This document shows positions 29,502-50,233 of a DNA stretch of 64,000 nt, piece by piece. Source of the stretch: a virus. The stretch spans positions 9,972 to 73,971 of IMG/VR virus record IMGVR_UViG_3300046779_001123; one strand, 5' to 3'. The translations under genes were made by a program, and so were the position numbers. Positions within the stretch are counted from its first letter, which is position 1. Each line of letters begins with the position of its first letter. The notes beneath the pieces were generated by a model. The model searched no databases, had not been told where the DNA came from, and saw nothing but the letters and a program-made list of their open reading frames with translations.

Positions 29502-29504
29502 ACA

Positions 29505-30187: not shown

Positions 30188-30196
30188 CCAAATTTT

Positions 30197-30268: not shown

Positions 30269-30287
30269 CCATTATAAGTATGTGAAC

Positions 30288-30835: not shown

Positions 30836-30864
30836 ACAAGTTGACCGGTAAAGCAGAAGATGCT
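30836..30864 (+). promoter_or_regulatory. Sigma70-like promoter (TTGACC-17-TATACT)
   Basis: TTGACCGGTAAAGCAGAAGATGCTATACT; precedes a non-coding stretch. Confidence 0.45.
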
Positions 30865-31260: not shown

Positions 31261-31289
31261 ATGTGTTTTCATATAGTTAAAAAACTAAT

Positions 31290-31371
31290 GCTCGAGTGGT
31301 GTAATCGGTAGCCACAAGGGACTTAAAATCCCTCGCCGCAAGGCGTGCCGGTTCGATTCCGGCCTCGAGCA
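31290..31371 (+). tRNA. tRNA-Leu (TAA)
   Basis: Acceptor GCTCGAG/CTCGAGC, loop CTTAAAA, long variable arm. Confidence 0.8.
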
Positions 31372-31442
31372 CCAATCTATTGCGACATGTCAGAAATGAC
31401 CCTAGATTCGTTCGGGACTGGAAACAGTGTGTCTCTTTTTAT

Positions 31443-31514
31443 GGAGCTATCGTCTATCGGTTAGGACACCAGGTTTTCATCCTGGTAAGCGGGGTTCGAC
31501 TCCCCGTAGCTCTT
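31443..31514 (+). tRNA. tRNA-Glu (TTC)
   Basis: Acceptor GGAGCTA/TAGCTCT, loop TTTTCAT. Confidence 0.6.
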
Positions 31515-31691
31515 CCAAGTTTATGGAGACAGAAACTTATCACTGGTGCAACCGTTGTGCAATACGGCGGTCAATGTTCTCAGATAAGCGGATAACGTGG
31601 ACGGCATATGGGTAAGTGACTTGGCGCACCGCGAAAGCGTACCGCTGATATCGACCGCCTGTGTGTAGGCGGTCTCCACCATTTAGTTTAT

Positions 31692-31773
31692 GGATGTGTA
31701 GGAAAATTGGTAACCCCAGTGGACTGTAAATCCGCCGCCTCTGGCACTGCTGGTTCAACTCCAGCCGCATCCA
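31692..31773 (+). tRNA. tRNA-Tyr (GTA)
   Basis: Loop CTGTAAA, long variable arm. Confidence 0.7.
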
Positions 31774-31875
31774 CCAAATGTAAGATAGTTGTGTTCGCGT
31801 CCTGCAGGTAAGAGCACAACCGTATCATCACGGACGGGCGTATATGCCGTGTAAAAAATGCGACTCAGAAATTTA

Positions 31876-31947
31876 GGTCTCAAGGTGTTCATGGACGCAC
31901 ACAGCACTGTCACTGCTGAGGAGGGGGATCGTTACCCCCTGGGACCG
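31876..31947 (+). tRNA. tRNA-Asp (GTC)
   Basis: Acceptor GGTCTCA/TGGGACC, stem CAGCA/TGCTG with loop CTGTCAC; non-canonical T-loop ATCGTTA. Confidence 0.65.
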
Positions 31948-32060
31948 CCAGTATTCATTGCAAAGAAGACAACAACGATGCTCTACTCCCGTCCGGAGCA
32001 TTCGGCGAGATTGGGCTTACAATCGTAGCGTAAAAGTCGTAGAACGGGAACTAATTTTAT

Positions 32061-32136
32061 TCCGCAAAATCCGAGCAAGGTGCATGGACCTGACTGTTAA
32101 TCAGTGGTTAGGTGAGTTCGATCCTCACATGCGGAG
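32061..32136 (+). tRNA. tRNA-like gene with GTT anticodon loop (second Asn-like copy, aberrant D/anticodon stems)
   Basis: Acceptor TCCGCAA/ATGCGGA (one mismatch), loop CTGTTAA, good T-arm GTGAGTTCGATCCTCAC. Confidence 0.4.
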
Positions 32137-32145
32137 CCATACAAT

Positions 32146-32234
32146 GGAAGATGATGCAGCGGGGTTGGTCCTGCGACTGGCCTTGAAAACCAGGTCCTGA
32201 GAAATCGGGTGGGGTTCGACTCCTCCGTCTTCCG
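32146..32234 (+). tRNA. tRNA-Ser (TGA)
   Basis: GGAAGAT...CTTCCGCCA ends and loop CTTGAAAA resemble E. coli tRNA-Ser(UGA); long variable arm. Confidence 0.7.
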
Positions 32235-32292
32235 CCAGAATAAGCCTATACCCACTCCTGACGTGACCTGAGTCCCTGGGCTTTCTTTTTTC

Positions 32293-32364
32293 GCCCCGTT
32301 AGTTCTAGTGGTAAAACATCGGTTTTGTAATCCGAGGTCGGGTGTTCGATTCACCCCCGGGGCA
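32293..32364 (+). tRNA. tRNA-Thr (TGT)
   Basis: Acceptor GCCCCGT/CCGGGGC, loop TTTGTAA, T-arm GGGTGTTCGATTCACCC. Confidence 0.55.
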
Positions 32365-32373
32365 CCAAGTTAT

Positions 32374-32448
32374 GCAGTAATGGAAAGGGGTAGGAGGCCT
32401 GTCCTCTGAGTTCTAGACACCCGCAGTGGTTCGAGTCCACTGGCTGCA
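32374..32448 (+). tRNA. tRNA-like gene, isotype undetermined
   Basis: Good T-arm AGTGGTTCGAGTCCACT and acceptor closure; anticodon arm could not be folded canonically. Confidence 0.3.
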
Positions 32449-32611
32449 CCAAATTTTGAGATAGACGTAGGGATTGAGTCCCTTGTGCGCTAGGGCCCTG
32501 TTCTTGTGCCTGACACACCAGTAGCAACACAAGGTAGTTAAACTCTCCCATACGAGACAAGCTGATGAGTCCTTGAGAAAGATAGTCAGTCTCTCAAAAA
32601 CCTATTTTGTC

Positions 32612-32679
32612 CTTTGTGTAGAATAACGGGAGTTCGCCCCGGTGCACAGGAGGTAGTGGTTCGATTCCACTCACAAAGG
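32612..32679 (+). tRNA. tRNA-like gene, aberrant anticodon arm (possible pseudogene)
   Basis: Acceptor CTTTGTG/CACAAAG, D-arm GAAT..GTTC, T-arm AGTGGTTCGATTCCACT; no foldable anticodon stem. Confidence 0.3.
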
Positions 32680-32687
32680 GCCTTTAT

Positions 32688-32761
32688 ACCACCTTAGCTC
32701 AGCTGAACAGAGCACCAGGCTACGAACTTGGGGGTCGGGAGTTTGAATCTCTCAGGTGGTA
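32688..32761 (+). tRNA. tRNA-Arg (ACG)
   Basis: Acceptor ACCACCT/AGGTGGT, loop CTACGAA. Confidence 0.75.
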
Positions 32762-32774
32762 CCATAAAGATTTT

Positions 32775-32847
32775 GGGCTGTGATTGAGCTGGGGTTCTTG
32801 GCTGCTTTGCAAGCAGTTATCGGTGGGTTCGATTCCCACACGGTCCA
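32775..32847 (+). tRNA. tRNA-Ala (TGC)
   Basis: Acceptor GGGCTGT/ACGGTCC (G-U pairs), loop TTTGCAA. Confidence 0.6.
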
Positions 32848-33078
32848 CCAAGTTTTGTAAGTGTCAGCAAGAGAATGTCACGCTATGCAATATTCTTCGA
32901 AGGTGTTGTATAGTAGAAGGTAGCGGGTTCGATCCCCGGCCTGCGGGAAACTGCGGGCATACAGTTGGAGTATCATCTGGACTTAGTATCCCAAGTGTCA
33001 TGCCGCCCCCTGTCCGGACTTGTATAATCAGGAAAAAAGTTGAGATAAAAGTGGCTCAACTACTTACAAATTCAACAT

Positions 33079-33150
33079 GTCGCATTAGACTTCTGGTGAG
33101 GTCACTACCCTTTCAAGGTGGCCAGAGGGGATCGTAACCCCTATGCGACT
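33079..33150 (+). tRNA. tRNA-Glu (TTC), second copy
   Basis: Acceptor GTCGCAT/ATGCGAC, loop CTTTCAA as in E. coli tRNA-Glu; T-loop ATCGTAA. Confidence 0.6.
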
Positions 33151-33268
33151 CCATTGATAAGCATACTCAAGGCAATAAAAAGCCATAACGCTGGGCGCAG
33201 CTCGACCGGTAAGAGTGGGCAGGTTCAAATCCTGCAGAGTCTGATCAACTCTGAGTGTGTTTTTCAAT

Positions 33269-33366
33269 GGGAGCGTTGCTAATACTGGCCTTAGGGCGAG
33301 ACTTATACCCTCGTAAGCACTGTCTAGATAAGGCAGTTAATGTGGGTTCGATTCCCACCGCTCCTA
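33269..33366 (+). tRNA. Unusually long (98 nt) tRNA-like gene, possible anticodon TAT
   Basis: Acceptor GGGAGCG/CGCTCCT, T-arm GTGGGTTCGATTCCCAC, ~28-nt extra arm ACTGTC-TAGATAA-GGCAGT. Confidence 0.4.
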
Positions 33367-33373
33367 CCAACTT

Positions 33374-33445
33374 CTGGCGTTAGTTCAACGGATAGAACAT
33401 AGAGCTTCTACCTCTAGAATGTGGGTTCGATTCCTGCACGCCGGA
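33374..33445 (+). tRNA. tRNA-Arg (TCT)
   Basis: Stem TAGAG/CTCTA, loop CTTCTAC. Confidence 0.7.
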
Positions 33446-33490
33446 CCAAATTTATTGGTAGCGCATAAATAAAACAAAAGATGCTCTACC

Positions 33491-33874
33491 ATGAAAACTT
33501 ATAACTGTATCCAATGCGGGAAAGAATGTTCTTTTTCGCATCAAAAAAGAAACAAATTTTGTAGCAACGACTGCCAACATCAACATCGCCGTGCTCAAAC
33601 TTTTTCAAGATTACTCGAAGGTGAGATAACCGAGCGCCAAACGATTCGGAGCACGTTAATTTACCAATTTGGACATAAGTGTATGTCGTGTGAGTTAACA
33701 GAATGGCAAGGGCAACCTATACCACTTGAGGTTGATCATGTCGACGGAAACGCAGGAAACAATGCGTATAATAATTTAAAACTTCTTTGTGCTAACTGCC
33801 ACGGTATTACCCCAACATGGAAGGGTAAGAATAAAGGTAATGGCAGAGCAGCACGAGGATTGAAGCTCTCATAG
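33491..33874 (+). CDS. HNH endonuclease
   Basis: CIQCGKEC, EVDHVDGNAGNNAYNNLKLLCANCHG. Confidence 0.75.
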   Translation: MKTYNCIQCGKECSFSHQKRNKFCSNDCQHQHRRAQTFSRLLEGEITERQTIRSTLIYQFGHKCMSCELTEWQGQPIPLEVDHVDGNAGNNAYNNLKLLCANCHGITPTWKGKNKGNGRAARGLKLS

Positions 33875-33935
33875 TATAATGGCATTACACACCCTTGGTA
33901 AGGGTGAAACACAAGTTCAATTCTTGTTGAGAGCA
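33865..33935 (+). tRNA. tRNA-Thr (GGT)
   Basis: Acceptor GCTCTCA/TGAGAGC, stem CACCC/GGGTG, loop TTGGTAA; overlaps HNH stop. Confidence 0.75.
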
Positions 33936-34011
33936 CCAAGGTACTACTCATAGAATTGTTCGCACTAGTCTATAAGTGGAGGGCAGTAGCGAACACTGCC
34001 CGAGAGATAAT

Positions 34012-34084
34012 GCTGCTTTAGCTGATGTGGTCATAGCACCGGATTGAAAATCCGAGGAACCCTGTTCGATCCGGGGAGGCAGCA
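34012..34084 (+). tRNA. tRNA-Phe (GAA)
   Basis: Loop TTGAAAA, acceptor GCTGCTT/AGGCAGC. Confidence 0.7.
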
Positions 34085-34107
34085 CCACCATTTACAAGGA
34101 GACGATC

Positions 34108-34170
34108 ATGGCAATCATTGTTGTGTTGGTTATCTTTGTTACACTATATTTTTTTATAAGGAAACTTTGA
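34108..34170 (+). CDS. 20-aa hydrophobic micro-peptide (MAIIVVLVIFVTLYFFIRKL)
   Basis: AAGGAG SD 6 nt upstream; speculative. Confidence 0.25.
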   Translation: MAIIVVLVIFVTLYFFIRKL

Positions 34171-34256
34171 CATGAAACGTTCAGCGAAACCGTAGTGTCA
34201 TCTCAGCACCCTGTATGGTCCGGGATGGCACGTAAAAGACAATTTTTACATTCCAT

Positions 34257-34328
34257 CCCTTTGAGATGTTAAGGCAGCATGCCGGACTCTTAATCCGTGA
34301 CGTGTGGGTTCGACTCCCACCAGAGGGA
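34257..34328 (+). tRNA. tRNA-Lys (CTT)
   Basis: Acceptor CCCTTTG/CAGAGGG, loop CTCTTAA. Confidence 0.55.
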
Positions 34329-34334
34329 CCATAT

Positions 34335-34405
34335 GGGGGTGAAACTTTAAGGTGAAGTAACCGGCTTTTAACCGGTAAAATTCGGATCGTTCCCGAACAC
34401 CCCTA
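34335..34405 (+). tRNA. tRNA-Lys (TTT)
   Basis: Stem ACCGG/CCGGT, loop CTTTTAA; non-canonical T-loop ATCGTTC. Confidence 0.7.
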
Positions 34406-34407
34406 CC

Positions 34408-35100
34408 ATATAAAAACACACTCTACCCTACCCTGGCTGGAACGGCTGTGCGGGGATAGGAGAACAGACCCGTTTGAGTGTGTTTCTATATGGTAACAAG
34501 GTTCGAAACTTGTCCTTCCGGTGGCGGAAATTTACCTGTAAGGGGAAAAACCGGTGCCATATAGAAATACATTATTGCCTGAAAAGATGAAAATTCTAGA
34601 CAAGTAATCATATGTTGTCTGCAGATGCGTTAGATATCGGCGTAATCACAGCAGAGGTATAGTGTGTTTCTATATGGTAAGTGTTATCTGCAGGTAACAC
34701 CCATGCTGGAGAGTAATTAACTCCAGGAGCTCGTAGTGATGGAACTGGAAGACATTCCTCCGTTATAGGAGGCGGGAGTTCCGCAAGGCCCCCATGCAGG
34801 TTCGAACCCTGCCTACAATGAGCTTGCATATAAAAGCATTCTTGGCATAAGTCAAAGCAGAAGAAGAAACCTAGTGGATGCATACGCGAAAGTTTCAGTG
34901 GTTCAACCCCCTTCTAGGCCTGCCGTCGAGAGTGCCTCTATATGTAATTAGAGATTGTTAATAAAGCGTAGAGCTCGATTGATGTCGGTGAAGTAACGCA
35001 TAGTTAGTTCGCAGTCATAGATATCGTAGACCACAATACAGCATACGCCATCATCACTTAGACTTAATTGAAAGTCTAATCCAGCTGGGGTTTGACTGTA
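34408..35100 (+). ncRNA. ~700-nt tRNA-free non-coding stretch with direct/inverted repeats (structured RNA candidate)
   Basis: AGTGTGTTTCTATATGGTAA at 34470 and 34661; 11-bp inverted partner CCATATAGAAA at 34557; several T-arm-like hairpins without acceptor closure. Confidence 0.3.
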
Positions 35101-35124
35101 ATAAGTTTTCACAAAAATATTTAT

Positions 35125-35198
35125 GGTGGGTATCGCCAAGTGGTTAAGGCCTCGGGTTGTGATTCCGATATGCGTGAGTTCGATCCTCACTATCCACC
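35125..35198 (+). tRNA. tRNA-His (GTG) with encoded G-1
   Basis: G-1 + GTGGGTA...TATCCAC-C-CCA (discriminator C), loop TTGTGAT. Confidence 0.8.
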
Positions 35199-35205
35199 CC
35201 AACAT

Positions 35206-35277
35206 GGATGTATAGCATAATGGTAGTGCGCCTCCTTCATACGGAGTCCGGTGGTAGTTCGAATCTACTTACATCCA
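35206..35277 (+). tRNA. tRNA anticodon CAT (Met, fMet or Ile2), copy 2
   Basis: Acceptor GGATGTA/TACATCC, loop TTCATAC. Confidence 0.65.
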
Positions 35278-35324
35278 CCAAATAATTGCCGACAGCAAGT
35301 GTTGTCGACTATATAATAACGTAT

Positions 35325-35396
35325 TCCCCGGTAGCTCAGCGGTAGAGCAGGAGACTGTTAATCTCTTGGTCGCAAGTTCGATCCTTGCCTGGGGAG
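35325..35396 (+). tRNA. tRNA-Asn (GTT)
   Basis: Stem GGAGA/TCTCT, loop CTGTTAA, T-arm GCAAGTTCGATCCTTGC. Confidence 0.8.
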
Positions 35397-35404
35397 CCAA
35401 ATTT

Positions 35405-35491
35405 CGAGAGTGGGCCGGATGGTAAGGCAGCGGATTGCTAATCCGTAGAGTGTAGTAATACGCTCACAGGGTTCGACTCCCTGACTCTCGG
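35405..35491 (+). tRNA. tRNA-Ser (GCT)
   Basis: Acceptor CGAGAGT/ACTCTCG, loop TTGCTAA, long variable arm. Confidence 0.8.
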
Positions 35492-35501
35492 CCAGTATAT
35501 T

Positions 35502-35573
35502 GCGGGTATGGTGCTAGTGGTAACACACGACCTTGCCAAGGTTGAGTTGAGGGTTCGATCCCCTCTACCCGCT
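35502..35573 (+). tRNA. tRNA-Gly (GCC)
   Basis: Acceptor GCGGGTA/TACCCGC, loop TTGCCAA. Confidence 0.75.
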
Positions 35574-35581
35574 CCAAAATT

Positions 35582-36220
35582 ATGTATAAAAGATTGTTAG
35601 CGTTCGGTGATAGTTTTACATTTGGGCACGAGTTAGACGATTGTTTCAAAGACCAACCGAGTAATCAAACGTATTCGGCATTACTAGGACAATGGTTAGA
35701 TATTCCATACCAATGCCACGCTGTTGGGTCTAACGCCAATCAAAGCATTACTAGAAATATACTCAATGCTGATATTTTGCAAAACGATCTTGTGATTATA
35801 ATGTGGACATACGAAGAGCGCCAAGACTTTTTGTTTGATGGCAAACGTGGATGGTCGAGTGTGTCCCCAACTGATTTTGATCAATTTGCAACTTGTTTTT
35901 ATAAACATATTGATCCTACATTACAGTATTTTCAATATCTATCACATAAAGAAATATTTTTAGTCCAAAAGTATTTGGATAATATTGGAGTAAATCACAT
36001 TCATTGTTGTGTTACTTCGTCTTTATTAGAAAGTATCAACTACAGAAATTCCCCAATAAGTAAACAGATTAACACATCTAATTGGATTGCGATGCCGGGA
36101 CCTACAGGGTTCTATGATTGGGCAAAAAGTCAATCATTGATTGTAAGACAGGGCGGGCATGCAAACTCGTATGCACACCAACAATTATTTGAGTTAATAA
36201 AACAACACATGCCTGGATAG
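35582..36220 (+). CDS. SGNH/GDSL-hydrolase-like protein (paralog 3) inside the tRNA island
   Basis: N-terminal LLAFGDSFTFG; overlaps tRNA-Val at its 3' end. Confidence 0.5.
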   Translation: MYKRLLAFGDSFTFGHELDDCFKDQPSNQTYSALLGQWLDIPYQCHAVGSNANQSITRNILNADILQNDLVIIMWTYEERQDFLFDGKRGWSSVSPTDFDQFATCFYKHIDPTLQYFQYLSHKEIFLVQKYLDNIGVNHIHCCVTSSLLESINYRNSPISKQINTSNWIAMPGPTGFYDWAKSQSLIVRQGGHANSYAHQQLFELIKQHMPG

Positions 36221-36282
36221 CTCAGGGGTAGAGCGTCTCCTTTACACGGAGAGGGTCCGCGGTTCGAAACCGTGTCCAGGTA
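36211..36282 (+). tRNA. tRNA-Val (TAC)
   Basis: Stem TCTCC/GGAGA, loop TTTACAC. Confidence 0.8.
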
Positions 36283-36291
36283 CCAGACAAT

Positions 36292-36363
36292 CGGCTGTTA
36301 GTTCAATGGATAGAATTCCATGCTTCGAACTTGGAGATGTGGGTTCGATTCCTGCACAGCCGG
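36292..36363 (+). tRNA. tRNA-Arg (TCG)
   Basis: Loop CTTCGAA; D- and T-arms paralogous to tRNA-Arg(TCT) at 33374. Confidence 0.55.
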
Positions 36364-36383
36364 CCACTAGCAAGGAGGAAGAG

Positions 36384-36569
36384 ATGAAACCCGTGACTTT
36401 TGAAAATAAATTAAATCGCGAACGTGTCATCTGTGATGATACACGACTATCCCAGTGGGTAGATGGGGTAGAATACCTTGCAGTGCATCGAGAGAATTCA
36501 CCTAGAATTTTTTTAATGCGGCGAGATAGTTTAGAAAAAGTAAAAACAAAAGAAAAAATGGCTCCGTAG
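36384..36569 (+). CDS. Small hypothetical protein (61 aa)
   Basis: AAGGAGG SD 6 nt upstream of ATG. Confidence 0.35.
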   Translation: MKPVTFENKLNRERVICDDTRLSQWVDGVEYLAVHRENSPRIFLMRRDSLEKVKTKEKMAP

Positions 36570-36633
36570 TTCAGTCTGGCAGAACGTTGGTCTCCAAAAC
36601 CAAATGTCGGTGGTTCAAATCCATCCGGGGTCG
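36560..36633 (+). tRNA. tRNA-Trp (CCA)
   Basis: Stem TTGGT/ACCAA, loop CTCCAAA. Confidence 0.75.
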
Positions 36634-36649
36634 CCATACACAACAGTAA

Positions 36650-37198
36650 TCATCGAGGTTTACACCATAAAGACAGAAAAGAAAGGTCAAGCCATTTTTT
36701 TTCCATTCCTAAGATAGGCACTGGATCAGTTAGAAAAGAACTATAAATTTCAAAGTGCCGATTAAATTGATCAATATACCAATCTTTAGTCCTTAGCTGA
36801 TGATTTGGTAATATTACTATTTTAGCAACAAGATCCTTTTTAGTTAAAAAATGCAAGTCGTCAAGAACAGTATCAAAATATTGATTTTCAACGTGATTTA
36901 TTGCATTGTTAGTTAAAACTAAATCACAAGGCACAGTAGGATATGTTGAATATTTGCTAACAAAAGGATCATATCCATAAGCTGGCATGTCTGTAACATC
37001 TTTTAGTATTAATCCGTTGCCGCAACCATAGTCTAATATTGACGTAGGTTTTAACTTGTTTATAATATCTGTGTGAGATACTTCTTTGCCATCTTGCGCT
37101 CGGAACATGTAAGGATAATTATTTCCCCAGTGTGGAATATTTGCGTATGCAAACTCGTGCTTGGCACGAAGTTCGTTAGTATACAATATTTTGGTCAT
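36650..37198 (-). CDS. Class I SAM-dependent methyltransferase (minus strand, inside the tRNA island)
   Basis: ILDYGCGNGLILKD motif I; start trimmed to MTKILY because the longer ORF overlaps the + gene at 37223. Confidence 0.55.
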   Translation of the reverse strand: MTKILYTNELRAKHEFAYANIPHWGNNYPYMFRAQDGKEVSHTDIINKLKPTSILDYGCGNGLILKDVTDMPAYGYDPFVSKYSTYPTVPCDLVLTNNAINHVENQYFDTVLDDLHFLTKKDLVAKIVILPNHQLRTKDWYIDQFNRHFEIYSSFLTDPVPILGMEKKWLDLSFLSLWCKPR

Positions 37199-37222
37199 AA
37201 AATATTTATTTGAGAGGAAAAA

Positions 37223-37714
37223 ATGACAAAATTTAACATCGAAGAAATCCGTGACTTCATTGCGGCACAAAGTCCAGAAACCAAAATTTACATTGGTTGC
37301 GACTCTGAACGCACAAAGATCAACGGCGTATGGCATGCTGTATATACAGCCGCCATTGTAGTTCACATCAATGGCAACAATGGATGCAGACTATTCGGTG
37401 AAGTGACTCGTGAACGTGACTATGATCAAAAGGCCAATCGCCCTAGCACACGTTTAATGACCGAAGTTTACAAAGTTTCTGCTTTGTATTTGAAATTAGC
37501 AGATGTGTTAGAAGGTCGTGATGTTGAAGTTCACTTAGACGTCAACCCCGACGAACATTATGGTTCAAGCTGTGTTGTAAGCCAAGCTATCGGTTATATC
37601 CGTGGCGTTTGCAATGTTGAACCAATGGTTAAGCCGCAAGCGTTTGCCGCAAGTTATGCAGCCGACAGGTTCCGTAGCTTAGGCACAGCTCGAGGCCATG
37701 CCCAGGTGGTGTAA
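37223..37714 (+). CDS. Hypothetical protein
   Basis: GAGGAAAAA RBS; 3' end reads into tRNA-Leu. Confidence 0.4.
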   Translation: MTKFNIEEIRDFIAAQSPETKIYIGCDSERTKINGVWHAVYTAAIVVHINGNNGCRLFGEVTRERDYDQKANRPSTRLMTEVYKVSALYLKLADVLEGRDVEVHLDVNPDEHYGSSCVVSQAIGYIRGVCNVEPMVKPQAFAASYAADRFRSLGTARGHAQVV

Positions 37715-37778
37715 TTGGTAGCCACGTCAGACTCAAAATCTGATGCGCAAGCGTGTCGGTTCGAGTCCGACCCTGGGC
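37700..37778 (+). tRNA. tRNA-Leu (CAA)
   Basis: Stem TCAGA/TCTGA, loop CTCAAAA, long variable arm. Confidence 0.85.
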
Positions 37779-37812
37779 ACCACAATTTCGGTAAAACTGA
37801 TTAAAAAAGTTG

Positions 37813-37841
37813 TTGACAACTAAATCAGTTTATACTACAAT
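37813..37841 (+). promoter_or_regulatory. Sigma70-like promoter (TTGACA-17-TACAAT) driving the downstream structured region
   Basis: TTGACAACTAAATCAGTTTATACTACAAT. Confidence 0.5.
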
Positions 37842-37844
37842 AGA

Positions 37845-38335
37845 TACTTAGGGCAGTTTATTGTCCTGTAGCGTATGGTTCGCCCAGCGTTGCGAAGAAT
37901 AACTGTGGTGACACAGCCAAAGGAGGTAAGCCTACGCAACTCCGCCAGCAATGGTTCATGTAAACAAGCCTGCTCAGGTCCGTGAGGATCCGATCACTGA
38001 TAAGACCGGTGGTTGTAACAATGACGCTGGAAGTATAGGAAAGAGCTTTTGCTTACAAGCCCGCAAGGGGAACTTGAGTAGAAGAAAAGTAACAGGTGGT
38101 GCTGACTTCTATGCAAAACCAGTCCAGTTAATTGGTATGAGAAAGGGTAGTGTATTTGTCCGAGGGGTTGCACCCAAGGGCTTGTATGCAGTTTTAGTGG
38201 CAAGTGGAGGTACGCGAAAGCCGAGACCCGACACTGATCGCAAAAGACGACTGAGTAGTCCGCAAGACAAAAGGTACATGGTGAGTTGTATTATGCAATC
38301 CAAAAGATTGTGTAGCAACTGAGGCAGCTCATCGT
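37845..38335 (+). ncRNA. ~490-nt GC-rich structured ncRNA candidate
   Basis: Multiple GNRA-tetraloop hairpins (CCCGCAAGGGG, GCGAAAGC, CGCAAAAG); higher GC than neighbours; overlapping ORF 37951..38322 has R/K/G-rich protein-atypical composition and no RBS. Confidence 0.4.
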
Positions 38336-38339
38336 AGTA

Positions 38340-38411
38340 GGTTAAGTAGCACAATGGTAGTGCAGTTCCCTTTTAAGGAATAGGCTGTTGGTTCAAATCC
38401 AACCTTATACA
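38340..38411 (+). tRNA. tRNA-like gene, loop CTTTTAA (Lys-TTT-like), imperfect acceptor; possible pseudogene
   Basis: D-arm GCAC..GTGC, stem GTTCC/GGAAT, T-arm GTTGGTTCAAATCCAAC; acceptor pairs 5/7; no CCA. Confidence 0.3.
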
Positions 38412-38415
38412 AAAA

Positions 38416-38835
38416 TGCAAAGACTGCCTCGGTCATACGTGAAAAGCATCTAATGCTTGACACGCAAGTGAATCAAGTCTGACGTAGCTCGCAAGGTGAA
38501 ATCAGTTTGTGTTAGAAGTTTCGTAGCATCTTAGCGGATGTGAATGGCTCTAAAAGGTCAACGGGAAATAAGACACAGAGTAGCGTGTGACGACAAGTCT
38601 ACTGCCTGACTTTAAAAACGGCGATGCTGATAGCAGACAGTGATACCGCAAGGGTCGCTGTGGATGTCGGAAGAAGTAGTGCTCGCAAGGTGCTATATAA
38701 TGTCCGAGGTGCTATTGGCTTAAGGTGTAATCTCAACCTTAGGCACTATTATAAAACACATTAGTTGAGCTTGATGTTTTGACTGATCAACATAGCTACA
38801 TAGGGTAGATTAGTGTGTTTCATAATAGAAAGATT
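38416..38835 (+). ncRNA. ~420-nt non-coding structured region with repeated GCTCGCAAGGTG motif
   Basis: GTAGCTCGCAAGGTG at 38477 and GTGCTCGCAAGGTG at 38679; CCGCAAGGG hairpin; no ORF. Confidence 0.35.
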
Positions 38836-38837
38836 TT

Positions 38838-38912
38838 GTCTCGGTACCAGAGCGACTCAATGGCGTGGATTGCAAATCCATCGATTCGTAGGTTTGAATC
38901 CTACCCGGGACT
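38838..38912 (+). tRNA. tRNA-Cys (GCA)
   Basis: Loop TTGCAAA, T-arm GTAGGTTTGAATCCTAC. Confidence 0.75.
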
Positions 38913-39207
38913 CCAATTAGTTTTGCTAGTTTTCACAAAACTAGACTGTGATGTATGGAGATGAGGAGTTGCACAAGTAGTATCCGACTTGAAATTGGAA
39001 TACTGCATAATTAACGTGATCCAGTGTCCTGAGATGAATTGGCGAAAGCCGTGTTTGTTGATGCTCAGAAAAATTGGTATCCTCTGCTTGTTGAATGTTG
39101 CTTTGGCGCTATACTGTAATGGTTATGCCAATGTTAATTGCAAATTGTTCAGCGGCTTACTTGCCATACACTCACTGTTTTATATTCAAATAGAAAGGAA
39201 CTCGAAT

Positions 39208-39774
39208 ATGAAGATTACACTTCGCAAAGCAAATGCTTTACAAAACGCTATCCAAGACCACATCAAGACTCTTGATGTTAAGACCTCGATTTCTCTAAAC
39301 GAGTTCCAAAACATCGAAGGTGAGTTGGCTCTAGCTCGTGGTGTTGCATTTGAAAACGATCTTAAACGTGCTCGTTTGACAAAGGCATTGTATGGCATTC
39401 GTGCCCGTGTTGGTCGTGCTAATGTTGAATCTGGCGTAAGCGATTTGCTTGCTGATGCCGCTTATGTTGATAAGCGCCTGGGCCACTTGAAAGGCTTAAC
39501 TGAAAGCAAAGCAGTTGAACCGGCATCTGTTTTAAACGGCAAAGTTGAAAAACTTCGCAACACAGATGCCAAGAACCGTATGTATGGTTATAACGACACA
39601 GTTGATACTGGTGTGTTTACACCGGATCAAATCGAAGGCTACAAAGCAGACATGCGTAGCCTGAAGAAGGAAAAGCAAAGCATCAACGACAAGGTGCTAG
39701 AACTCAATGTTCGCACTGAAGTTGAGTTGGATGTAGACACTGTTGCACTGCTACAAGCAGAACAATTAGTGTAA
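39208..39774 (+). CDS. Hypothetical protein (coiled-coil-like)
   Basis: AAAGGAACT RBS; start trimmed from ORF 38989 to the internal ATG. Confidence 0.45.
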   Translation: MKITLRKANALQNAIQDHIKTLDVKTSISLNEFQNIEGELALARGVAFENDLKRARLTKALYGIRARVGRANVESGVSDLLADAAYVDKRLGHLKGLTESKAVEPASVLNGKVEKLRNTDAKNRMYGYNDTVDTGVFTPDQIEGYKADMRSLKKEKQSINDKVLELNVRTEVELDVDTVALLQAEQLV

Positions 39775-39781
39775 ATAGTTG

Positions 39782-39855
39782 TGCGGAAGAGTGAAACGGT
39801 TTCCACGGAAGTCTCATAAGCTTCAGACATCAGGTTCGACTCCTGCTTTCCGCAA
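39782..39855 (+). tRNA. tRNA anticodon CAT (Met, fMet or Ile2), copy 3
   Basis: Acceptor TGCGGAA/TTCCGCA, loop CTCATAA. Confidence 0.6.
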
Positions 39856-39906
39856 CCAGGCCTCGCCTTTGCTAACGGCGTATAATAGGATAAATTGTTA
39901 GCACTT

Positions 39907-39987
39907 GCCCCGGTGGTGTAATGGTAGCCACGCTGGTCTTAGAAGCCAGTGGAGAGATCCGTGTCGGTTCGAGTCCGACCTGGGGCA
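39907..39987 (+). tRNA. tRNA-Leu (TAG)
   Basis: Loop CTTAGAA, long variable arm. Confidence 0.85.
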
Positions 39988-39996
39988 CCAAAATTT

Positions 39997-40069
39997 GCGT
40001 GATTAACTCAGTTGGTAGAGTGCCAATTTGACTCGTTGGATGTCGGCAGTTCGAATCTGTCATCACGCA
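39997..40069 (+). tRNA. tRNA-Val (GAC), position 37 is U
   Basis: Acceptor GCGTGAT/ATCACGC, stem CCAAT/GTTGG, loop TTGACTC. Confidence 0.55.
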
Positions 40070-40087
40070 CCAAGCCATATATAAGCT

Positions 40088-41986
40088 GTGCAGAAAATTA
40101 TCAGCTTTGTCCAAGTAAACTTTCAACAAGGACCTCGAGAACTCAACGCTTACTATCTACCCTACACCGCAGGTGTGGTGTTAGCCTACGCATTAGAGCA
40201 AAATCCAGACTGGAAACTCGGCGAACTTATATGGCGTAGAGATCCAATTGAAGAAACAGCACAACGTCTAAAGCACAGTGATGCAGTTGGGTTCAGCACG
40301 TATGTGTGGAATCATCAATACAACTATGCTCTAGCTAAACGAGTAAAAGAGCTTAATCCTAACTGCTTGATTGTAACCGGGGGTCCCGAGATTGCAATTA
40401 CAGATCCAGACTTGTTTATAAAAAACCCCTGGATGGATGCAGCAGTTAAGATGGAGGGCGAGCTTGTGTTTTCACAACTACTAAAAGAATATGGGAATAA
40501 CTTATTATCTATCTCAGGCTTAGTAGTTAACGTGGATGGACGGGCAGTAGACACAGGCAATAGTGATCGAATTAATACCTTAGACCAACTTCCAAGTCCG
40601 TATCTAACCGGACTGTTTGACGACCTATTGAGTGCCTACCCAGACATAACCTGGAACGCCACACTTGAAACAAATCGCGGTTGCCCATACCAATGCACGT
40701 TTTGCGATTGGGGTAGCCTTACTTACAATAAAGTAAAGCTATTCAACTTAGATCGTGTATTCCGTGAGTTAGAATGGATTGGCGAGCATTGCGGTTTCGT
40801 TACTATTACAGACGCAAACTTCGGAATGTTTGTTGAACGCGACAACTCAATTGTTTCAAAGTTGATCGAAGTCCAGTTACGTTGGAACAATCTTACTAGT
40901 TTCTCAATGACCTGGGCCAAGAATCAAAAGAACGAAGTTGTTGATATTGTGCGTAGACTTGTCGACGAAAGTCCCACAGCTAGTCAAGGACTTACTGTTA
41001 GTGTGCAAAGCATGAACGAAGGTGTGCTGGATATTATCAAGCGCCGCAACTTGGACCAACACAAGATTGAAGAAATATTTTCATTGTGTGATCGTTATAA
41101 CATTCCCGTGCATACCGAACTTATTTTAGGCTTGCCCGGTGATACAGAAGCCAGCTGGAAGGAAAATTTTTGGCGATTATTTAGAGCAGGCAATCACACA
41201 GGCATCAGCATACTACATGCACAGTTGTTAGAAAATGCTGAAATGAATATCAGCCAACGCAAATTCTACAAGCTAGACGCTGTTCCAATCTATGATTATA
41301 TGAGTGGCAGTTATAGCAATGGCGAAGTCGAAGAAAGCATGGAAGTAGTTGTCGGCACTAGAGATATACCGCGCAACAAAATGCTGGACTTGATGATATG
41401 GAACAGTTTCATACAAACATTTCATATTAATGGTTTGACAACTTACATTGCAAGATACATGGCCTCACAAGGTGTAGACTATAAAGAATTTTACGACAAA
41501 TTATGGTATCGATTGCAACGTGATCCATGGTGGCAACAGCAGTTTGCAACTACTCGAAAACTATACGAAGAGTGGATTAATAATGGCAGAGTCAATGTTC
41601 AAGTGGGCGGAATAAGTGTGCCTGGGTGGAATCTACACAACAGAATGACTTTGGTACTACATGCTGAACACAAAATCAATCAAACATACGATTTGATATA
41701 TCAATTCATTTGTGCAGAGTTTGATATCAACTGCGCAGATCAATTGACCGTATTTCAAAGATTTACTGTGATTGATCATGCTACATTATCAAAGTTTCCC
41801 CGGCGTCAACAATTTGATTGGGATTTTTGGGGATACTTGGTTCACGGTTCAGAAATAAATCAAGCAGTGTGCTATGAGTTTGACACTGCCGAAGACAAAA
41901 CAATGAGTGCCAAAATGTTTTTAGAAAATTTTTATTTCGGTCGTAAAAGAAATTTTGGTAAAACAAATATTACCCGGGTGGTGTAA
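40088..41986 (+). CDS. B12-binding radical SAM (class B) enzyme
   Basis: N-terminal B12-binding-like Rossmann region (LIVTGGPE), TNRGCPYQCTFCDW CxxxCxxC cluster; 632 aa; located between tRNA genes. Confidence 0.65.
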   Translation: MQKIISFVQVNFQQGPRELNAYYLPYTAGVVLAYALEQNPDWKLGELIWRRDPIEETAQRLKHSDAVGFSTYVWNHQYNYALAKRVKELNPNCLIVTGGPEIAITDPDLFIKNPWMDAAVKMEGELVFSQLLKEYGNNLLSISGLVVNVDGRAVDTGNSDRINTLDQLPSPYLTGLFDDLLSAYPDITWNATLETNRGCPYQCTFCDWGSLTYNKVKLFNLDRVFRELEWIGEHCGFVTITDANFGMFVERDNSIVSKLIEVQLRWNNLTSFSMTWAKNQKNEVVDIVRRLVDESPTASQGLTVSVQSMNEGVLDIIKRRNLDQHKIEEIFSLCDRYNIPVHTELILGLPGDTEASWKENFWRLFRAGNHTGISILHAQLLENAEMNISQRKFYKLDAVPIYDYMSGSYSNGEVEESMEVVVGTRDIPRNKMLDLMIWNSFIQTFHINGLTTYIARYMASQGVDYKEFYDKLWYRLQRDPWWQQQFATTRKLYEEWINNGRVNVQVGGISVPGWNLHNRMTLVLHAEHKINQTYDLIYQFICAEFDINCADQLTVFQRFTVIDHATLSKFPRRQQFDWDFWGYLVHGSEINQAVCYEFDTAEDKTMSAKMFLENFYFGRKRNFGKTNITRVV

Positions 41987-42051
41987 TGGTAGCCACGCAG
42001 CGTTGAGGTCGCTGTGCCAAAAGCGTGTGAGTTCGAATCTCATCCCGGGTA
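41972..42051 (+). tRNA. tRNA-Leu (GAG)
   Basis: Stem CAGCG/CGCTG, loop TTGAGGT, long variable arm. Confidence 0.85.
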
Positions 42052-42061
42052 CCAAATTTAT

Positions 42062-43169: not shown

Positions 43170-43709
43170 ATGAAAACTGTTGGCGATAAAATCACAAATT
43201 TTGCAGTAACAGGCGTTAAGCCCGGACAACCCGAAGACGCTTTTTATACAATCACAGACCAGAGCTTCGAAGGCAAATGGAAAGTCATCGTATACTACCC
43301 AAAGGACTTTACCTTTGTATGCCCAACTGAAATTGTAGCATACGACAAGTTAGCACAAGACTTTGCTGATCGTGACGCTGTATTGCTCACAGGTTCTACA
43401 GATAATGAGTTCTGTAAAGTTGCTTGGCAAAATGCTCACGCCGACTTAAAGAAGATCACACATCACCAGTTCGCCGACACACAGCGTGGCGAGTTGAGCT
43501 TGATTGAGCAGTTAGGTGTATTCTATGCTCCAGCAGGTGCTGCACTTCGTGCAACATTCATTGTTGACCCTAACAACGAAATCCAGCACGTTACAGTCAA
43601 CAACTTAAACGTTGGTCGTAGCCCGGAAGAAACCCTGCGTGTGTTAGACGCATTGCAAACTGGCGAACTCTGTGCTTGCAACCGCACTGTTGGTGGCGAG
43701 ACTCTGTAA
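43170..43709 (+). CDS. ahpC: Peroxiredoxin (AhpC/TSA 2-Cys family)
   Basis: DFTFVCPTE peroxidatic Cys motif; AGGAGA RBS. Confidence 0.85.
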   Translation: MKTVGDKITNFAVTGVKPGQPEDAFYTITDQSFEGKWKVIVYYPKDFTFVCPTEIVAYDKLAQDFADRDAVLLTGSTDNEFCKVAWQNAHADLKKITHHQFADTQRGELSLIEQLGVFYAPAGAALRATFIVDPNNEIQHVTVNNLNVGRSPEETLRVLDALQTGELCACNRTVGGETL

Positions 43710-44332
43710 TGTTAGAAACTATATGCGACACACTGGTTGAAGCATATAGGCGCAACTGGATTACCAGTCGTGATGGCAATGTGAGTATTCGTCATCACGA
43801 CAGGGATCACTTTTACATCACACCCAGTGGCGTTCGTAAGCAAACCATGCAACCGGATCAGTTCAAAAAGATTAGAATTGTAAGTAGTCTAATGTGGTCA
43901 GAAGAATACTACACTGACATCAGTGCTAACCTAAAACCCAGTGGCGAGATTCCACTTCATTTTGGTTTACAGAAGAACATGGGTCAGCACAGTAATGATG
44001 TTAGAGTAGTAGTTCACTTACATCCTACATATTGTGTGGCTGCTATGCATCGTGGAATCGAATTAAGCAGTCTTGCTAATGACTTTCCTGAACTCAGTCG
44101 CTATACCAAGGTAGCACCTAACGTGGGAGATGTTCCTCCAATCAGTCAAGAACTAGCAGATCGGTGCCATGAGAACTTGCAGCTAGATATTCGCGGCAAC
44201 ATTGGTTATGATATTGTAGGCATCAAAGGCCACGGCGTAGTTGCTATAGACACCAGCCCATGGCGGGCTTTTGAACACATTGAACGATTGGAACACATTT
44301 GCCAAATCGTATTAGCATCAGGGAAATATTAA
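43709..44332 (+). CDS. Class II aldolase/adducin-family protein
   Basis: RDGNVSIR, VHLHPTY, GIKGHGVVAID blocks; start overlaps ahpC stop (TAATG). Confidence 0.55.
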   Translation: MLETICDTLVEAYRRNWITSRDGNVSIRHHDRDHFYITPSGVRKQTMQPDQFKKIRIVSSLMWSEEYYTDISANLKPSGEIPLHFGLQKNMGQHSNDVRVVVHLHPTYCVAAMHRGIELSSLANDFPELSRYTKVAPNVGDVPPISQELADRCHENLQLDIRGNIGYDIVGIKGHGVVAIDTSPWRAFEHIERLEHICQIVLASGKY

Positions 44333-44333
44333 A

Positions 44334-44849
44334 ATGACACAATGGGTAGATCAATTAAAAGAAGGACTTCCTGAGTATGCCAAGGACACCAAGTTAAACT
44401 TGGATGCTGTGATCAAACGCAGTAGCTTGGCTCCTGAGGAAGCAGAAGCAATCGCATTGGCTGCGGCCTTTGCAACAGGCAATGGTAAGCTAGTCACTTT
44501 TATCCAAAGTGGCTTAGCTGATGCAAAAGAGCGCGATGCTGCATTAACAGCTGGCTCGATCATGGCACAAAACAACACCTGGTATCCCTATGTTGAAATG
44601 GCCGATGACGAAAACTTAAAAGGTTTACCGGCACAATTACGCATGAACGCTATTGCCCAACACGGTGGAACTACCAAAGCTCGTTTCGAAGCATATAGCT
44701 TGGCGGCGAGCATTGTTGGCAAGTGCCATTTCTGTGTAAAAGCTCATTATGAAACCCTTAAGCAAGAAGGTTATACTGTTGAACAGTTGCGTGACATTGG
44801 TAGGATTGCCGCGGCAATCACCAGTGTTGCACGAGTGTTAAATAGTTAA
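44334..44849 (+). CDS. ahpD: AhpD-like carboxymuconolactone-decarboxylase-family peroxidase
   Basis: GKCHFCVKAH CxxC...H active-site-like motif. Confidence 0.6.
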   Translation: MTQWVDQLKEGLPEYAKDTKLNLDAVIKRSSLAPEEAEAIALAAAFATGNGKLVTFIQSGLADAKERDAALTAGSIMAQNNTWYPYVEMADDENLKGLPAQLRMNAIAQHGGTTKARFEAYSLAASIVGKCHFCVKAHYETLKQEGYTVEQLRDIGRIAAAITSVARVLNS

Positions 44850-49315: not shown

Positions 49316-50233
49316 TTGTCATTATCTATTATTTTCCATATTATGACATTAAATTTATTTCGCACTATTGCGACTTTTGTTTTATCTCTATCTGTATTTT
49401 CAAGTTATGCAGACACAGTGCCCTTGATCATACAAACCGGCCCCGGCGGACTGAATCACAAATACGCTCTAGAATTAGAACCAGTATTGACTAAAATTTT
49501 AGATGCGCCGGTTATCATTGAATTTAAGCCAGGTGGCCAAGGTATTGTCGGTGCAAGAGCATTAGCATCAAATAAAAACTCATCGATGTCACTTATGCTC
49601 GGGGCTGTCCAGCAAGACTTTGCAATAGATCAAACCAAGGATATTGTTCCGGTGTTAGATCTTGGCATTGCACCAACTGTTCTTATTGCAAAACCATCTT
49701 TGGGAATAAGTTCATTGTCACAACTGACCAAAACGTCCAGGAGTTACACTGTTGGAATTCCCAATGGCGCCGCACAACTTTATTGGGTTCGAGAGTTTGC
49801 TAAAAATTATAAAAATTTAAATTTGATCGAAGTTCCATACAAGTCAGGCGCGGCAGTGATAACCGATGTTATAGGAGGTCATGTTGATATCGGCATAGCA
49901 AGTGCCATTGGTGCAGCACCGCTGATTCAAGAAAATAAAGTAATTGTATTAGCTACATTATCTACCAAAAGATCTACTTTGATCCCAATAGTGCCTACTG
50001 CAAAAGAGCAAGGAATAGTCTACAAAAAAGACACAGTAGGGTTCAGCCATATGTATATTTGGGCCAACCCAGGAGCTTCTGTAGAATCGATACAAAAATT
50101 AAAATCTAGTTTTTACCAATGGGCAAACACTAGAGAAGCAATTGATTTATTTCAACGAATAGATCTAGGAGTAGACATTCAAGTAGTTGCAAAACCAGAA
50201 CTGTCTCTTCAAACATACATACAAGAAAAATAA
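49316..50233 (+). CDS. TctC/Bug-family periplasmic substrate-binding protein
   Basis: Signal peptide; family-like layout (VPYKSGAAVITDVIGGHVDIGIAS); AT-rich. Confidence 0.5.
   Translation: MSLSIIFHIMTLNLFRTIATFVLSLSVFSSYADTVPLIIQTGPGGLNHKYALELEPVLTKILDAPVIIEFKPGGQGIVGARALASNKNSSMSLMLGAVQQDFAIDQTKDIVPVLDLGIAPTVLIAKPSLGISSLSQLTKTSRSYTVGIPNGAAQLYWVREFAKNYKNLNLIEVPYKSGAAVITDVIGGHVDIGIASAIGAAPLIQENKVIVLATLSTKRSTLIPIVPTAKEQGIVYKKDTVGFSHMYIWANPGASVESIQKLKSSFYQWANTREAIDLFQRIDLGVDIQVVAKPELSLQTYIQEK

Follow-up and report, generated by a model that had tools for sequence, protein, structure and literature searches.

The virus-derived DNA analysed here carries a gene for a virus-specific, cobalamin-dependent (class B) radical S-adenosylmethionine (SAM) C-methyltransferase with the three-domain architecture of TokK and CysS, and this enzyme defines a virus-restricted clade. 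The gene lies at positions 40088–41986 of a 64,000-nt stretch (hereafter, the window; positions 9,972 to 73,971 of IMG/VR record IMGVR_UViG_3300046779_001123) from a jumbo phage whose 5′–3′ exonuclease has 49% identity to its counterpart in Pseudomonas phage PA5oct; this gene and the other main features described for the window are on the plus strand unless marked (−). From gene context, we propose, with a probability of about one half, that the enzyme adds a methyl group to a sugar carbon, within a glycosylation module linked to a DpdA-like 7-deazaguanine system. An earlier note on the same DNA had suggested a role in tRNA or nucleoside modification from the position of the gene between tRNA genes. 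We consider a sugar the more likely target, because nearly all related phages have the gene beside glycosyltransferase genes in a 7-deazaguanine cluster.

The open reading frame (ORF) starts with GTG and encodes 632 residues, in agreement with the lengths of its orthologs (630–641 aa). As the earlier note had it, the ORF contains a CPYQCTFC motif and an N-terminal B12-binding domain and is flanked by tRNA-Val(gac) and tRNA-Leu(gag). The gene is real, intact and under strong purifying selection, and it is functional, given a ratio of non-synonymous to synonymous substitutions (dN/dS) of 0.058 against the relative L001 and a GC content (0.41) like that of the window (0.43); against more distant relatives, synonymous sites are saturated.

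All three domains can be placed along the protein. The hidden Markov model (HMM) check suggested in the earlier note puts the radical SAM core (aa 195–359, 40670–41164) above the cut-off of Pfam PF04055 (2.6e-10, 41.2 bits against 29.5), and this core superposes on that of TokK. The N-terminal Rossmann-type cobalamin-binding domain (approximately aa 1–160, 40088–40567) is a borderline match to Pfam B12-binding over aa 49–131 (1.4e-7, 31.8 bits, just under the cut-off of 32.1), and is backed by structure through the full-length match to TokK described below and by a sequence alignment to TokK that begins at residue 19. Within it, W74 (nt 40307–40309), part of an invariant S-x-Y-V-W-N motif, aligns with the ‘SCYVWN’ of TokK and so with its lower-axial Trp76; a Trp beneath the corrin ring is common to TokK and CysS (TokK paper). 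The cluster motif RGCPYQCTFCDWGS (nt 40682–40705) translates to CPYQCTFC, a [4Fe-4S]-ligating CxxxCxxC motif whose C199, C203 and C206 align with C206, C210 and C213 of TokK and are invariant across 54 homologs. It is directly followed by D207 and W208, the latter the invariant counterpart of the TokK active-site Trp215 in the phmmer alignment. The C-terminal helical domain (approximately aa 425–632, 41360–41983) has a TokK/CysS-like fold, carries many invariant aromatic residues and closes with the invariant basic motif R619-K620-R621-N622-F623.

Several comparisons converge on the class B assignment, which the earlier note had made correctly. A phmmer search against PDB sequences returned TokK first (E = 1.4e-64 over aa 19–498) and CysS second (2e-42). 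An AlphaFold model built from 54 homologs (predicted local distance difference test (pLDDT) score 86.8, predicted template modelling (pTM) score 0.86) gave the same ranking in Foldseek, with TokK (PDB 7kdx) matched over the whole length at template modelling (TM) scores of 0.85/0.82, 675 columns and 25% identity, and with CysS second at 0.75; other radical SAM structures scored far lower (TsrM, whose C-terminal domain is of another kind, 0.48, AprD4 0.46, MgmA 0.43 and MiaB 0.40). Pfam and NCBIfam together gave no coverage of the protein past approximately aa 390. Because the Foldseek match spans the full length, the C-terminal 240 residues are a TokK/CysS-type third domain, the large helical one by which this subclass is distinguished. 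The best NCBIfam model was the KedN5 family of methylcobalamin-dependent radical SAM C-methyltransferases (NF033712, 4.1e-63, aa 62–388), with MiaB, RimO, HpnJ and PhpK models much weaker.

The earlier note had named assignment to a well-characterised family unrelated to nucleic acids, such as BchE, as the outcome that would count against its proposal. The BchE model TIGR02026 reached 45.3 bits against a cut-off of 481, and over aa 73–233 only. The nearest characterised enzymes, TokK, CysS and KedN5, are indeed natural-product methylases, but the score for the KedN5 model is 213.6 bits against a cut-off of 700, with the C-terminal 240 residues outside the model, and the substrate-anchoring arginine of TokK is absent; in the strict sense, that outcome did not occur. 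In TokK, Arg280 together with Tyr652 binds the carbapenam carboxylate (TokK paper). Here Arg280 aligns with S273, so that the residue pattern of a carbapenam alkylase is missing at this position, and the C-terminal region that holds Tyr652 in TokK (beyond approximately aa 500) is not alignable by sequence. With W74, C199, C203, C206 and W208 kept while Arg280 is replaced by S273, the protein retains the cofactor machinery of TokK but differs from it in the substrate site. By analogy with TokK and CysS, a first SAM would methylate cob(I)alamin to give methylcobalamin, and a second would be cleaved at the [4Fe-4S] cluster bound by C199, C203 and C206 to give a 5′-deoxyadenosyl radical. This radical would take a hydrogen from an unactivated substrate carbon, and the resulting substrate radical would accept the methyl group from methylcobalamin, in a cycle that may repeat as it does in TokK, CysS and KedN5.

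Close homologs of the enzyme appear essentially confined to metagenomic phage contigs, where they form an abundant, virus-restricted clade as judged from sequence. A search of 5.8 billion proteins returned more than 5000 matches; the best 120 are all full-length, 59–92% identical, unnamed and metagenomic, some of them on contigs of 100–340 kb. In IMG/VR, 93 viral stretches carry the family, and BFVD holds three uncharacterised proteins of the same fold from uncultured Caudovirales phages (approximately 20% identity). A scan of 185,579 species genomes gave two close matches only; the remaining cellular matches are at most 37% identical, and most align just to residue ~430–470. One apparent cellular ortholog (NZ_JBBAKG010000001.1, a 183-kb contig in a metagenome-assembled genome labelled ‘Haliscomenobacter sp.’; locus L086) was rejected, as the contig contains the whole phage cluster, with proteins 83–100% identical to those of IMG/VR loci; the contig represents either phage DNA placed in the wrong bin or a clue to the host. 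Among cultured phages, tblastn found two matches only, at 26% identity, and a PHROGs search with the protein returned no family. The remark in the earlier note that there is no obvious phage precedent therefore holds for cultured phages and fails for metagenomic ones, in which the family is abundant. Megablast of the 12 kb around the gene against GenBank phages gave just a 60-nt tRNA match, and the window phage is therefore not a GenBank deposit.

The gene came to lie among tRNA genes through a relocation peculiar to its lineage, out of a conserved slot elsewhere. ORFs were called and clustered across viral loci (clusters are written c1, c2 and so on), and the clusters recur in the order 23, 19, 18, 24, 16, 10, 12, 8, 9, 6, (21), 1, [B12 radical SAM], (1), 7, 2, 4, (17), 3, 5, 13, 11, 15, 14. 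In most phages the gene thus occupies a fixed slot, FolE–HIT–QueD–glycosyltransferase–[B12 radical SAM]–glycosyltransferase–methyltransferase–QueE. In the window, these clusters follow one another in unchanged order at 2011–25390, with this slot closed: synteny and the junction sequence place the empty ancestral slot at 12639–12642, where the stop codon of c1 overlaps the start codon of c7 (ATGA). The window has its B12 radical SAM gene within the tRNA array instead, approximately 27 kb downstream. We read this arrangement as relocation because the slot is conserved in IMG/VR loci while the same cluster in the window has the slot closed. ARAGORN, run on 80 viral loci with orthologs 48–63% identical, left approximately 72 of them without a tRNA gene within 10 kb. 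Adjacency to tRNA genes occurs only in the sublineage of the window (L001–L003 and L249–L251, 66–92% identity), in which the gene lies between tRNA-Leu(tag) and tRNA-Leu(gag).

The gene is also mobile around the cluster. Among loci anchored on QueE it is found between c10 and c12 (L237, L243 and L245), next to FolE (L216), or just after c14 on the opposite strand (L234 and L238), and in some the slot is without it while the glycosyltransferase and methyltransferase genes stay. In the window it is probably co-transcribed with the tRNAs. A promoter and terminator scan around it gave no excess over shuffled sequence, and an Rfam scan found no cobalamin or preQ1 riboswitch.

Four independent lines connect the gene to sugars, and the first is the glycosyltransferase genes beside it. 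Its most constant neighbour in other phages is c1, a GT2-like glycosyltransferase (11812–12642 in the window; PHROG 14945 ‘glycosyltransferase’, 1.2e-11) whose homolog in HTVC008M carries a glycosyltransferase annotation; on the question of which c1 paralog the window keeps, median identities are 48% versus 46%. Adjoining it is c7, a class I SAM-dependent methyltransferase and tailoring partner (12639–13418; Pfam Methyltransf_12/23/25, ~1e-20). Of 72 loci anchored on the B12 radical SAM gene in which both neighbours are visible, 68 have a glycosyltransferase-like gene directly beside it and 33 have c1 on both sides; the three loci in which neither neighbour matches any profile are L001–L003, of the tRNA lineage. 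Across 40 QueE-anchored loci with a visible slot, c1 is present in 12 of the 13 that bear the gene (p = 0.005) and c7 is also associated with it (p = 0.04). The phosphoribosyltransferase c30, which is not in the window, is anti-correlated with it (1/13 versus 13/27, p = 0.015), and FolE and QueD are near-universal with or without it.

Outside the slot, the c20 family flanks the gene in all contexts except the tRNA-array lineage. Its member in the window (51846–53042 (−), identified with local HMMs) is probably a GT10-like glycosyltransferase: the sole meaningful PDB match of the family is a GT10 α-1,3-fucosyltransferase, at a weak E of 0.16, on a FEN..TEK signature that corresponds to invariant columns of c20. 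L046 and L054 have the order c20, UDP-glucose/GDP-mannose dehydrogenase, B12 radical SAM gene, c20 and four further radical SAM genes. L059 has the dehydrogenase, several copies of c20 and a nucleoside diphosphate (NDP)-sugar epimerase nearby, with c31 and a DUF6071-like gene as immediate neighbours. In L080, L079 and L076, c20 stands on both sides, and in L087 the gene is followed by c20, c20, c31 and c20. As a side observation, the four tandem radical SAM genes in L046, L054 and L059 (323–470 aa, at approximately 13–18 kb (−), distantly c27-like) form an unusually radical-SAM-rich phage sugar cluster. A third setting is L250 of the tRNA lineage (66% identity), where the gene is followed by CTP_transf_like, PfkB kinase, cupin and RmlD-type genes, an HldE/HldD-like set. 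Finally, among cellular homologs (approximately 30–36% identity), NDP-sugar epimerases/dehydratases account for 43 of the 349 ORFs within 3 kb versus 14 of the 306 beyond 5 kb (odds ratio 2.9, p = 4e-4), and 14 such genes are directly adjacent.

The home cluster in the window is rich in further sugar genes. Between TGT-like c23 and FolE, Pfam recognises a weak GT1-like gene (c16, 6053–7243), an NDP-sugar epimerase/dehydratase (c10, 7244–8191) and a DegT fragment (c12, 8169–8789). A lineage-specific nucleotide-sugar insert runs from the methyltransferase to QueE (13415–18980) and comprises, by Pfam, a 4,6-dehydratase, a 240-aa protein of unassigned function, a 439-aa DegT-family protein, a 586-aa thiamine pyrophosphate (TPP) enzyme and an epimerase/reductase; it is common to L175, L176 and L180, and its gene set resembles that of branched-chain deoxysugar pathways of the yersiniose type.

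Interleaved with these are genes of 7-deazaguanine synthesis: GTP cyclohydrolase I (FolE, c8, 8791–9492; Pfam 1.4e-39), a QueD/PTPS-like 6-carboxytetrahydropterin synthase (c6, 11242–11745; Pfam PTPS 4e-16, NCBIfam QueD 4.8e-9, below cut-off) and a phage-type, QueE-like radical SAM protein (7-carboxy-7-deazaguanine synthase, c2, 18961–19818). For c2, tblastn found matches in 190 phages at 36–46% identity, with the top scorers mostly annotated QueE, and NCBIfam QueE models matched at ~1e-11, below their cut-offs. A HIT protein gene (c9, 10760–11161; Pfam) lies between FolE and QueD. No QueC was recognised in the window. The YhhQ transporter (c21) is not in the window and is present in many related loci. 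Two copies of c3, a DUF6071 family with a GDS(H) motif (Pfam), lie at 21299–21964 and 21961–22662. Small profiles of c1, c3/DUF6071, c4 and c23 gave no significant match against PDB sequences. Related gene sets extend to other phages: the cyanophage BUCT-ZZ01 shares c16 (64–67% identical, beside QueE, QueD and FolE), c18, FolE, QueD, c30 and QueE, and PA5oct shares c23, c16, c18, c30 and a QueE-like gene, without FolE, QueD, c1, c7 or the B12 enzyme.

At the head of the cluster, c23 (2011–3567) appears by profile comparison to be a remote member of the TGT/DpdA superfamily and a candidate base-exchange enzyme, although it has no Pfam label. In hhalign, a profile of 83 sequences matched E. coli Tgt with 88% probability (E = 3.1e-6) from the DSGGFQ motif to the FDC motif. 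D101 and D299, the counterparts of the two catalytic aspartates of TGT, are invariant, and in the PDB the profile matches hardly anything but TGT, with weak E-values of ~1. The homolog in Vibrio phage 2.275.O adjoins QueF, YhhQ, a ‘queuosine biosynthesis protein’, an aminohydrolase and FolE. The Pfam TGT model matched 1 of the 83 superfamily members, and that weakly (0.0087). With its 1014 clusters at 50% identity, the superfamily may represent a new subfamily of the DpdA type. Separately, we note that it is conserved in PA5oct-like phages (L166, PA5oct gp168) and in other jumbo phages (L247 and L248), beside replication genes.

Other genes of the cluster are less widely shared. Directly after QueE lies an NAD-synthase-family PP-loop enzyme (19794–20615; Pfam 7.8e-52), whose carboxylate-to-amide chemistry is QueC-like; we considered it as a QueC substitute and set that aside, as it occurs in 2 loci only. 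In other loci the position after QueE is taken by an AMP-binding enzyme (c40) or DUF2452 (c26). Between FolE and HIT, an FG-GAP repeat protein (9528–10763; Pfam 1.4e-18) is present in the window only among the compared loci.

Taken together, the contexts favour the alternative that the earlier note had offered, namely base or sugar hypermodification such as C-methylation of the sugar: the conserved slot between QueD and QueE lies beside glycosyltransferases, and three further independent contexts involve nucleotide-sugar genes. The substrate, which is read from this context, would be a nucleotide-sugar or an already transferred sugar, made and attached by the glycosyltransferases and nucleotide-sugar enzymes of the phage itself. 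The glycosylation module would act in concert with the TGT/DpdA-like enzyme, FolE, QueD and QueE among which it is interleaved in this phage group, and the final product would plausibly be a glycosylated, 7-deazaguanine-type hypermodification of phage nucleic acid.

Several points weigh against sugar methylation. The evidence on the target is all gene neighbourhood, and phage gene order is no proof of an operon; in the window itself, no sugar gene adjoins the B12 radical SAM gene. The co-occurrence tests carry no phylogenetic correction, and close relatives are numerous among the loci. Twelve QueE-anchored loci have the glycosyltransferase, and usually the methyltransferase, with no B12 radical SAM gene within 10 kb; in these the gene is either dispensable or elsewhere in the genome, as in the window. 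The glycosyltransferase calls for c1 and c20 are weak to moderate profile matches, and the TGT-like call for c23 is one of remote homology, its AlphaFold model having a pLDDT of 46.7 (from a shallow alignment, at least 86% identical) and being left unused. The structural relatives TokK and CysS use pantetheinylated non-sugar substrates, and the parallel with the sugar methyltransferases GenK and GenD1, to which we return below, is one of proposed chemistry.

Two rival explanations accept the genomic context and read it differently. The glycan might be methylated as we propose and yet sit off nucleic acid, on virion proteins, on a host surface polymer or in a free, huimycin-type glycosylated 7-deazapurine. 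The block in L046, L054 and L059 is co-transcribed with ORFs of 735–1353 aa that could be structural, the huimycin cluster yields a free metabolite from nearly the same gene content, and both the lack of a recognised QueC and the remoteness of the TGT-like call would fit. We nevertheless find such a destination rather unlikely: glycosyltransferases, methyltransferase and B12 radical SAM gene are closely intermixed with FolE, QueD and QueE; the cluster adjoins a TGT-superfamily gene and replication genes (the 5′–3′ exonuclease here; DNA polymerase, primase and helicase in the homologous regions of PA5oct and Phosso); and an unrelated cyanophage, too, has the GT1-like c16 in the company of FolE, QueD and QueE. 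The enzyme could also act on the 7-deazaguanine or pterin itself, at a carbon of 7-carboxy-7-deazaguanine (CDG), of 6-carboxytetrahydropterin (CPH4) or of the 7-substituent, before or after insertion by the TGT-like enzyme. Radical SAM methylases are reported to C-methylate pterins in methanopterin biosynthesis, and class B enzymes such as TsrM can methylate sp2 heteroaromatic carbons; the canonical position is, moreover, always between QueD and QueE, and QueD, FolE and QueE are near-universal in loci bearing the gene. Its presence, however, follows the glycosyltransferase c1, the deazaguanine core being equally present without it. In L046, L054, L059, L080 and L087, glycosyltransferase-like or sugar genes accompany it with no QueD or QueE within 10 kb, in L250 it precedes the HldE-like sugar set, and near its cellular relatives the enrichment is for NDP-sugar enzymes rather than queuosine genes. 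Methylation of the base or its precursor is, on this evidence, distinctly unlikely.

Two others concern the chemistry and the RNA neighbours. Class B includes enzymes that do not methylate, and a score far below the KedN5 cut-off leaves membership of that methylase family unestablished, so that a ring contraction, cyclisation or other rearrangement in the same pathway, as catalysed by OxsB or BchE, has to be weighed. We regard it as improbable, because the best matches are all methylases (TokK and CysS, and the models for KedN5, PhpK and a C-methyltransferase of ribosomally synthesized and post-translationally modified peptides (RiPPs)), because the BchE score is so low and because the lower-axial Trp of TokK and CysS is conserved. 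Modification of phage or host tRNA, the first suggestion of the earlier note, is very improbable. The placement among tRNA genes is shared by L001–L003 and L249–L251 and stable to 66–70% identity, 7-deazaguanines are well known as modifications of tRNA, and among the tRNAs of the phage are some with GUN anticodons (Asp, Asn, His and Tyr). Against this stand the roughly nine-tenths of orthologous viral loci that lack a nearby tRNA gene; the MiaB, MtaB, RimO and MnmL models, at 17–30 bits against cut-offs of 180–357; the absence from Pfam results of a TRAM (RNA-binding) or UPF0004 domain; and a TM score to MiaB–RNA complexes of less than half that to TokK. Unrelated accessory genes (AhpC, aldolase, phosphatase and RNase H-like) share the tRNA region as well. 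The step from tRNA adjacency to tRNA modification is thus unsupported, and the tRNAs are best regarded as neighbours rather than as substrates. For annotation, the lesson is that adjacency to tRNA genes in the tRNA array of a jumbo phage is no functional evidence.

The array itself extends over 25425–42054, starts directly after c14 and contains 33 ARAGORN tRNA genes, all on the plus strand. Directly upstream of the B12 radical SAM gene are tRNA-Leu(tag) and tRNA-Val(gac) (39907–40072, with tRNA-Val at 39997–40072; ARAGORN, Rfam), the latter ending 15 nt before the GTG start. Downstream, tRNA-Leu(gag) (41972–42054; ARAGORN, Rfam) overlaps the last 15 nt of the ORF, an overlap that recurs in L001. 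One odd ARAGORN call, at 34730–34820, is a ‘tRNA-???’ with a two-base anticodon, and Rfam adds tRNA matches at 33269–33366 and 39783–39854.

The same region holds other RNAs and proteins. A full-length GOLLD RNA (RF02032, 38278–38739; 210.6 bits, E = 4e-58) precedes the B12 radical SAM gene by approximately 1.3 kb and encloses tRNA-Lys(ttt) (38340–38411); the ORFs listed over this stretch (37951–38322 and others) are probably spurious. A permuted tmRNA (RF04321, 28705–29113; 66.6 bits, E = 1.2e-10), on which ARAGORN is silent, and an SGNH/GDSL-like protein (35582–36220), a third, divergent DUF6071 paralog (local HMM 3.6e-9), also lie within the array. A minus-strand ORF in this plus-strand region (36650–37366 (−)) has the SAM-binding motif ILDYGCGNG and overlaps the start of an RNase H-like gene (37223–37714). 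Downstream of the B12 radical SAM gene come three conserved genes, for an AhpC peroxiredoxin, a class II aldolase/adducin-like protein and an AhpD/CMD-family protein (43170–44849); the trio is found also in L001 and L249–L251 and is followed in the window by genes for a GATase-like protein and a dual-specificity phosphatase. Further accessory genes encode a TctC-family solute-binding protein (49316–50233), a MoxR-type AAA ATPase (53412–54494, 52% identical to PA5oct gp149), a DUF2201 metallopeptidase/VWA protein (59131–60453) and an SPFH/Band 7 protein (61174–62022).

Antibiotic, cofactor, lipid and protein-modification pathways all include known cobalamin-dependent radical SAM methylases, and to our knowledge none has been characterised from a virus. 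If sugar methylation is correct, phages build more elaborate sugars than recognised, possibly branched or chain-extended, and phage fitness would be linked to the vitamin B12 supply of the host. If that sugar sits on a 7-deazaguanine in DNA, the product would be a DNA hypermodification of a new class, with a bearing on the evasion of restriction and CRISPR. A more far-reaching version, which we offer tentatively and think unlikely as a whole, is that the DNA of these freshwater jumbo phages has guanine replaced by a 7-deazaguanine derivative that is inserted by an unrecognised TGT/DpdA-like family and glycosylated, with its sugar or side chain C-methylated by the B12 radical SAM enzyme. Such guanine replacement would be the first glycosylated 7-deazaguanine in DNA and the first B12/radical-SAM tailoring step in viral nucleic-acid hypermodification, with protection of the phage genome dependent on host vitamin B12. 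Our literature search on phages in combination with 7-deazaguanine, cobalamin, radical SAM or glycosyltransferases found no precedent.

Among known enzymes, TokK and ThnK, which alkylate C6 of carbapenems (PDB 7kdx and 7kdy), share with the phage protein the three-domain fold, the CxxxCxxC motif, the lower-axial Trp and the active-site Trp, whereas TokK belongs to a β-lactam cluster and the phage gene to a sugar/7-deazaguanine cluster in which no pantetheinylated substrate is evident. CysS (PDB 9n1b–d), an iterative C-methylase that acts on a methoxy group in cystobactamid and shares the Trp under the corrin ring, is second-best in both sequence and structure but is only 21% identical, acts on a pantetheinylated aminobenzoate and comes from an unrelated genomic context. 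A parallel in the proposed chemistry, cobalamin-dependent radical methylation of an unactivated sugar carbon, is offered by GenK and GenD1, sugar C-methyltransferases of the class B radical SAM type from aminoglycoside biosynthesis, which are found in antibiotic clusters of actinomycetes, not in phages.

At the level of the cluster, the phage Dpd systems (DpdA1–4 with FolE, QueD, QueE and QueC) resemble the present one in FolE, QueD, phage-type QueE, a TGT-superfamily gene and, in many related loci, YhhQ. They make dPreQ0, dPreQ1, dG+, dADG, mdPreQ1, fdPreQ1, dDG and dCDG, and those described have neither a B12 radical SAM enzyme nor glycosyltransferases; here, conversely, no QueC is recognised and c23 escapes the Pfam TGT model apart from the one weak match. 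The huimycin and dapiramicin clusters, which make glycosylated, O-methylated preQ0, share FolE, QueD, QueE, a SAM methyltransferase and a glycosyltransferase with the phage cluster and, in the case of dapiramicin, RmlB/RmlD-type enzymes. They differ in being from actinomycetes, in having QueC, in lacking TGT-like and B12 radical SAM enzymes and in yielding a free small molecule, and they illustrate how the same core genes, joined by a glycosyltransferase, a methyltransferase and Rml-type enzymes, give rise to glycosylated and methylated 7-deazaguanines.

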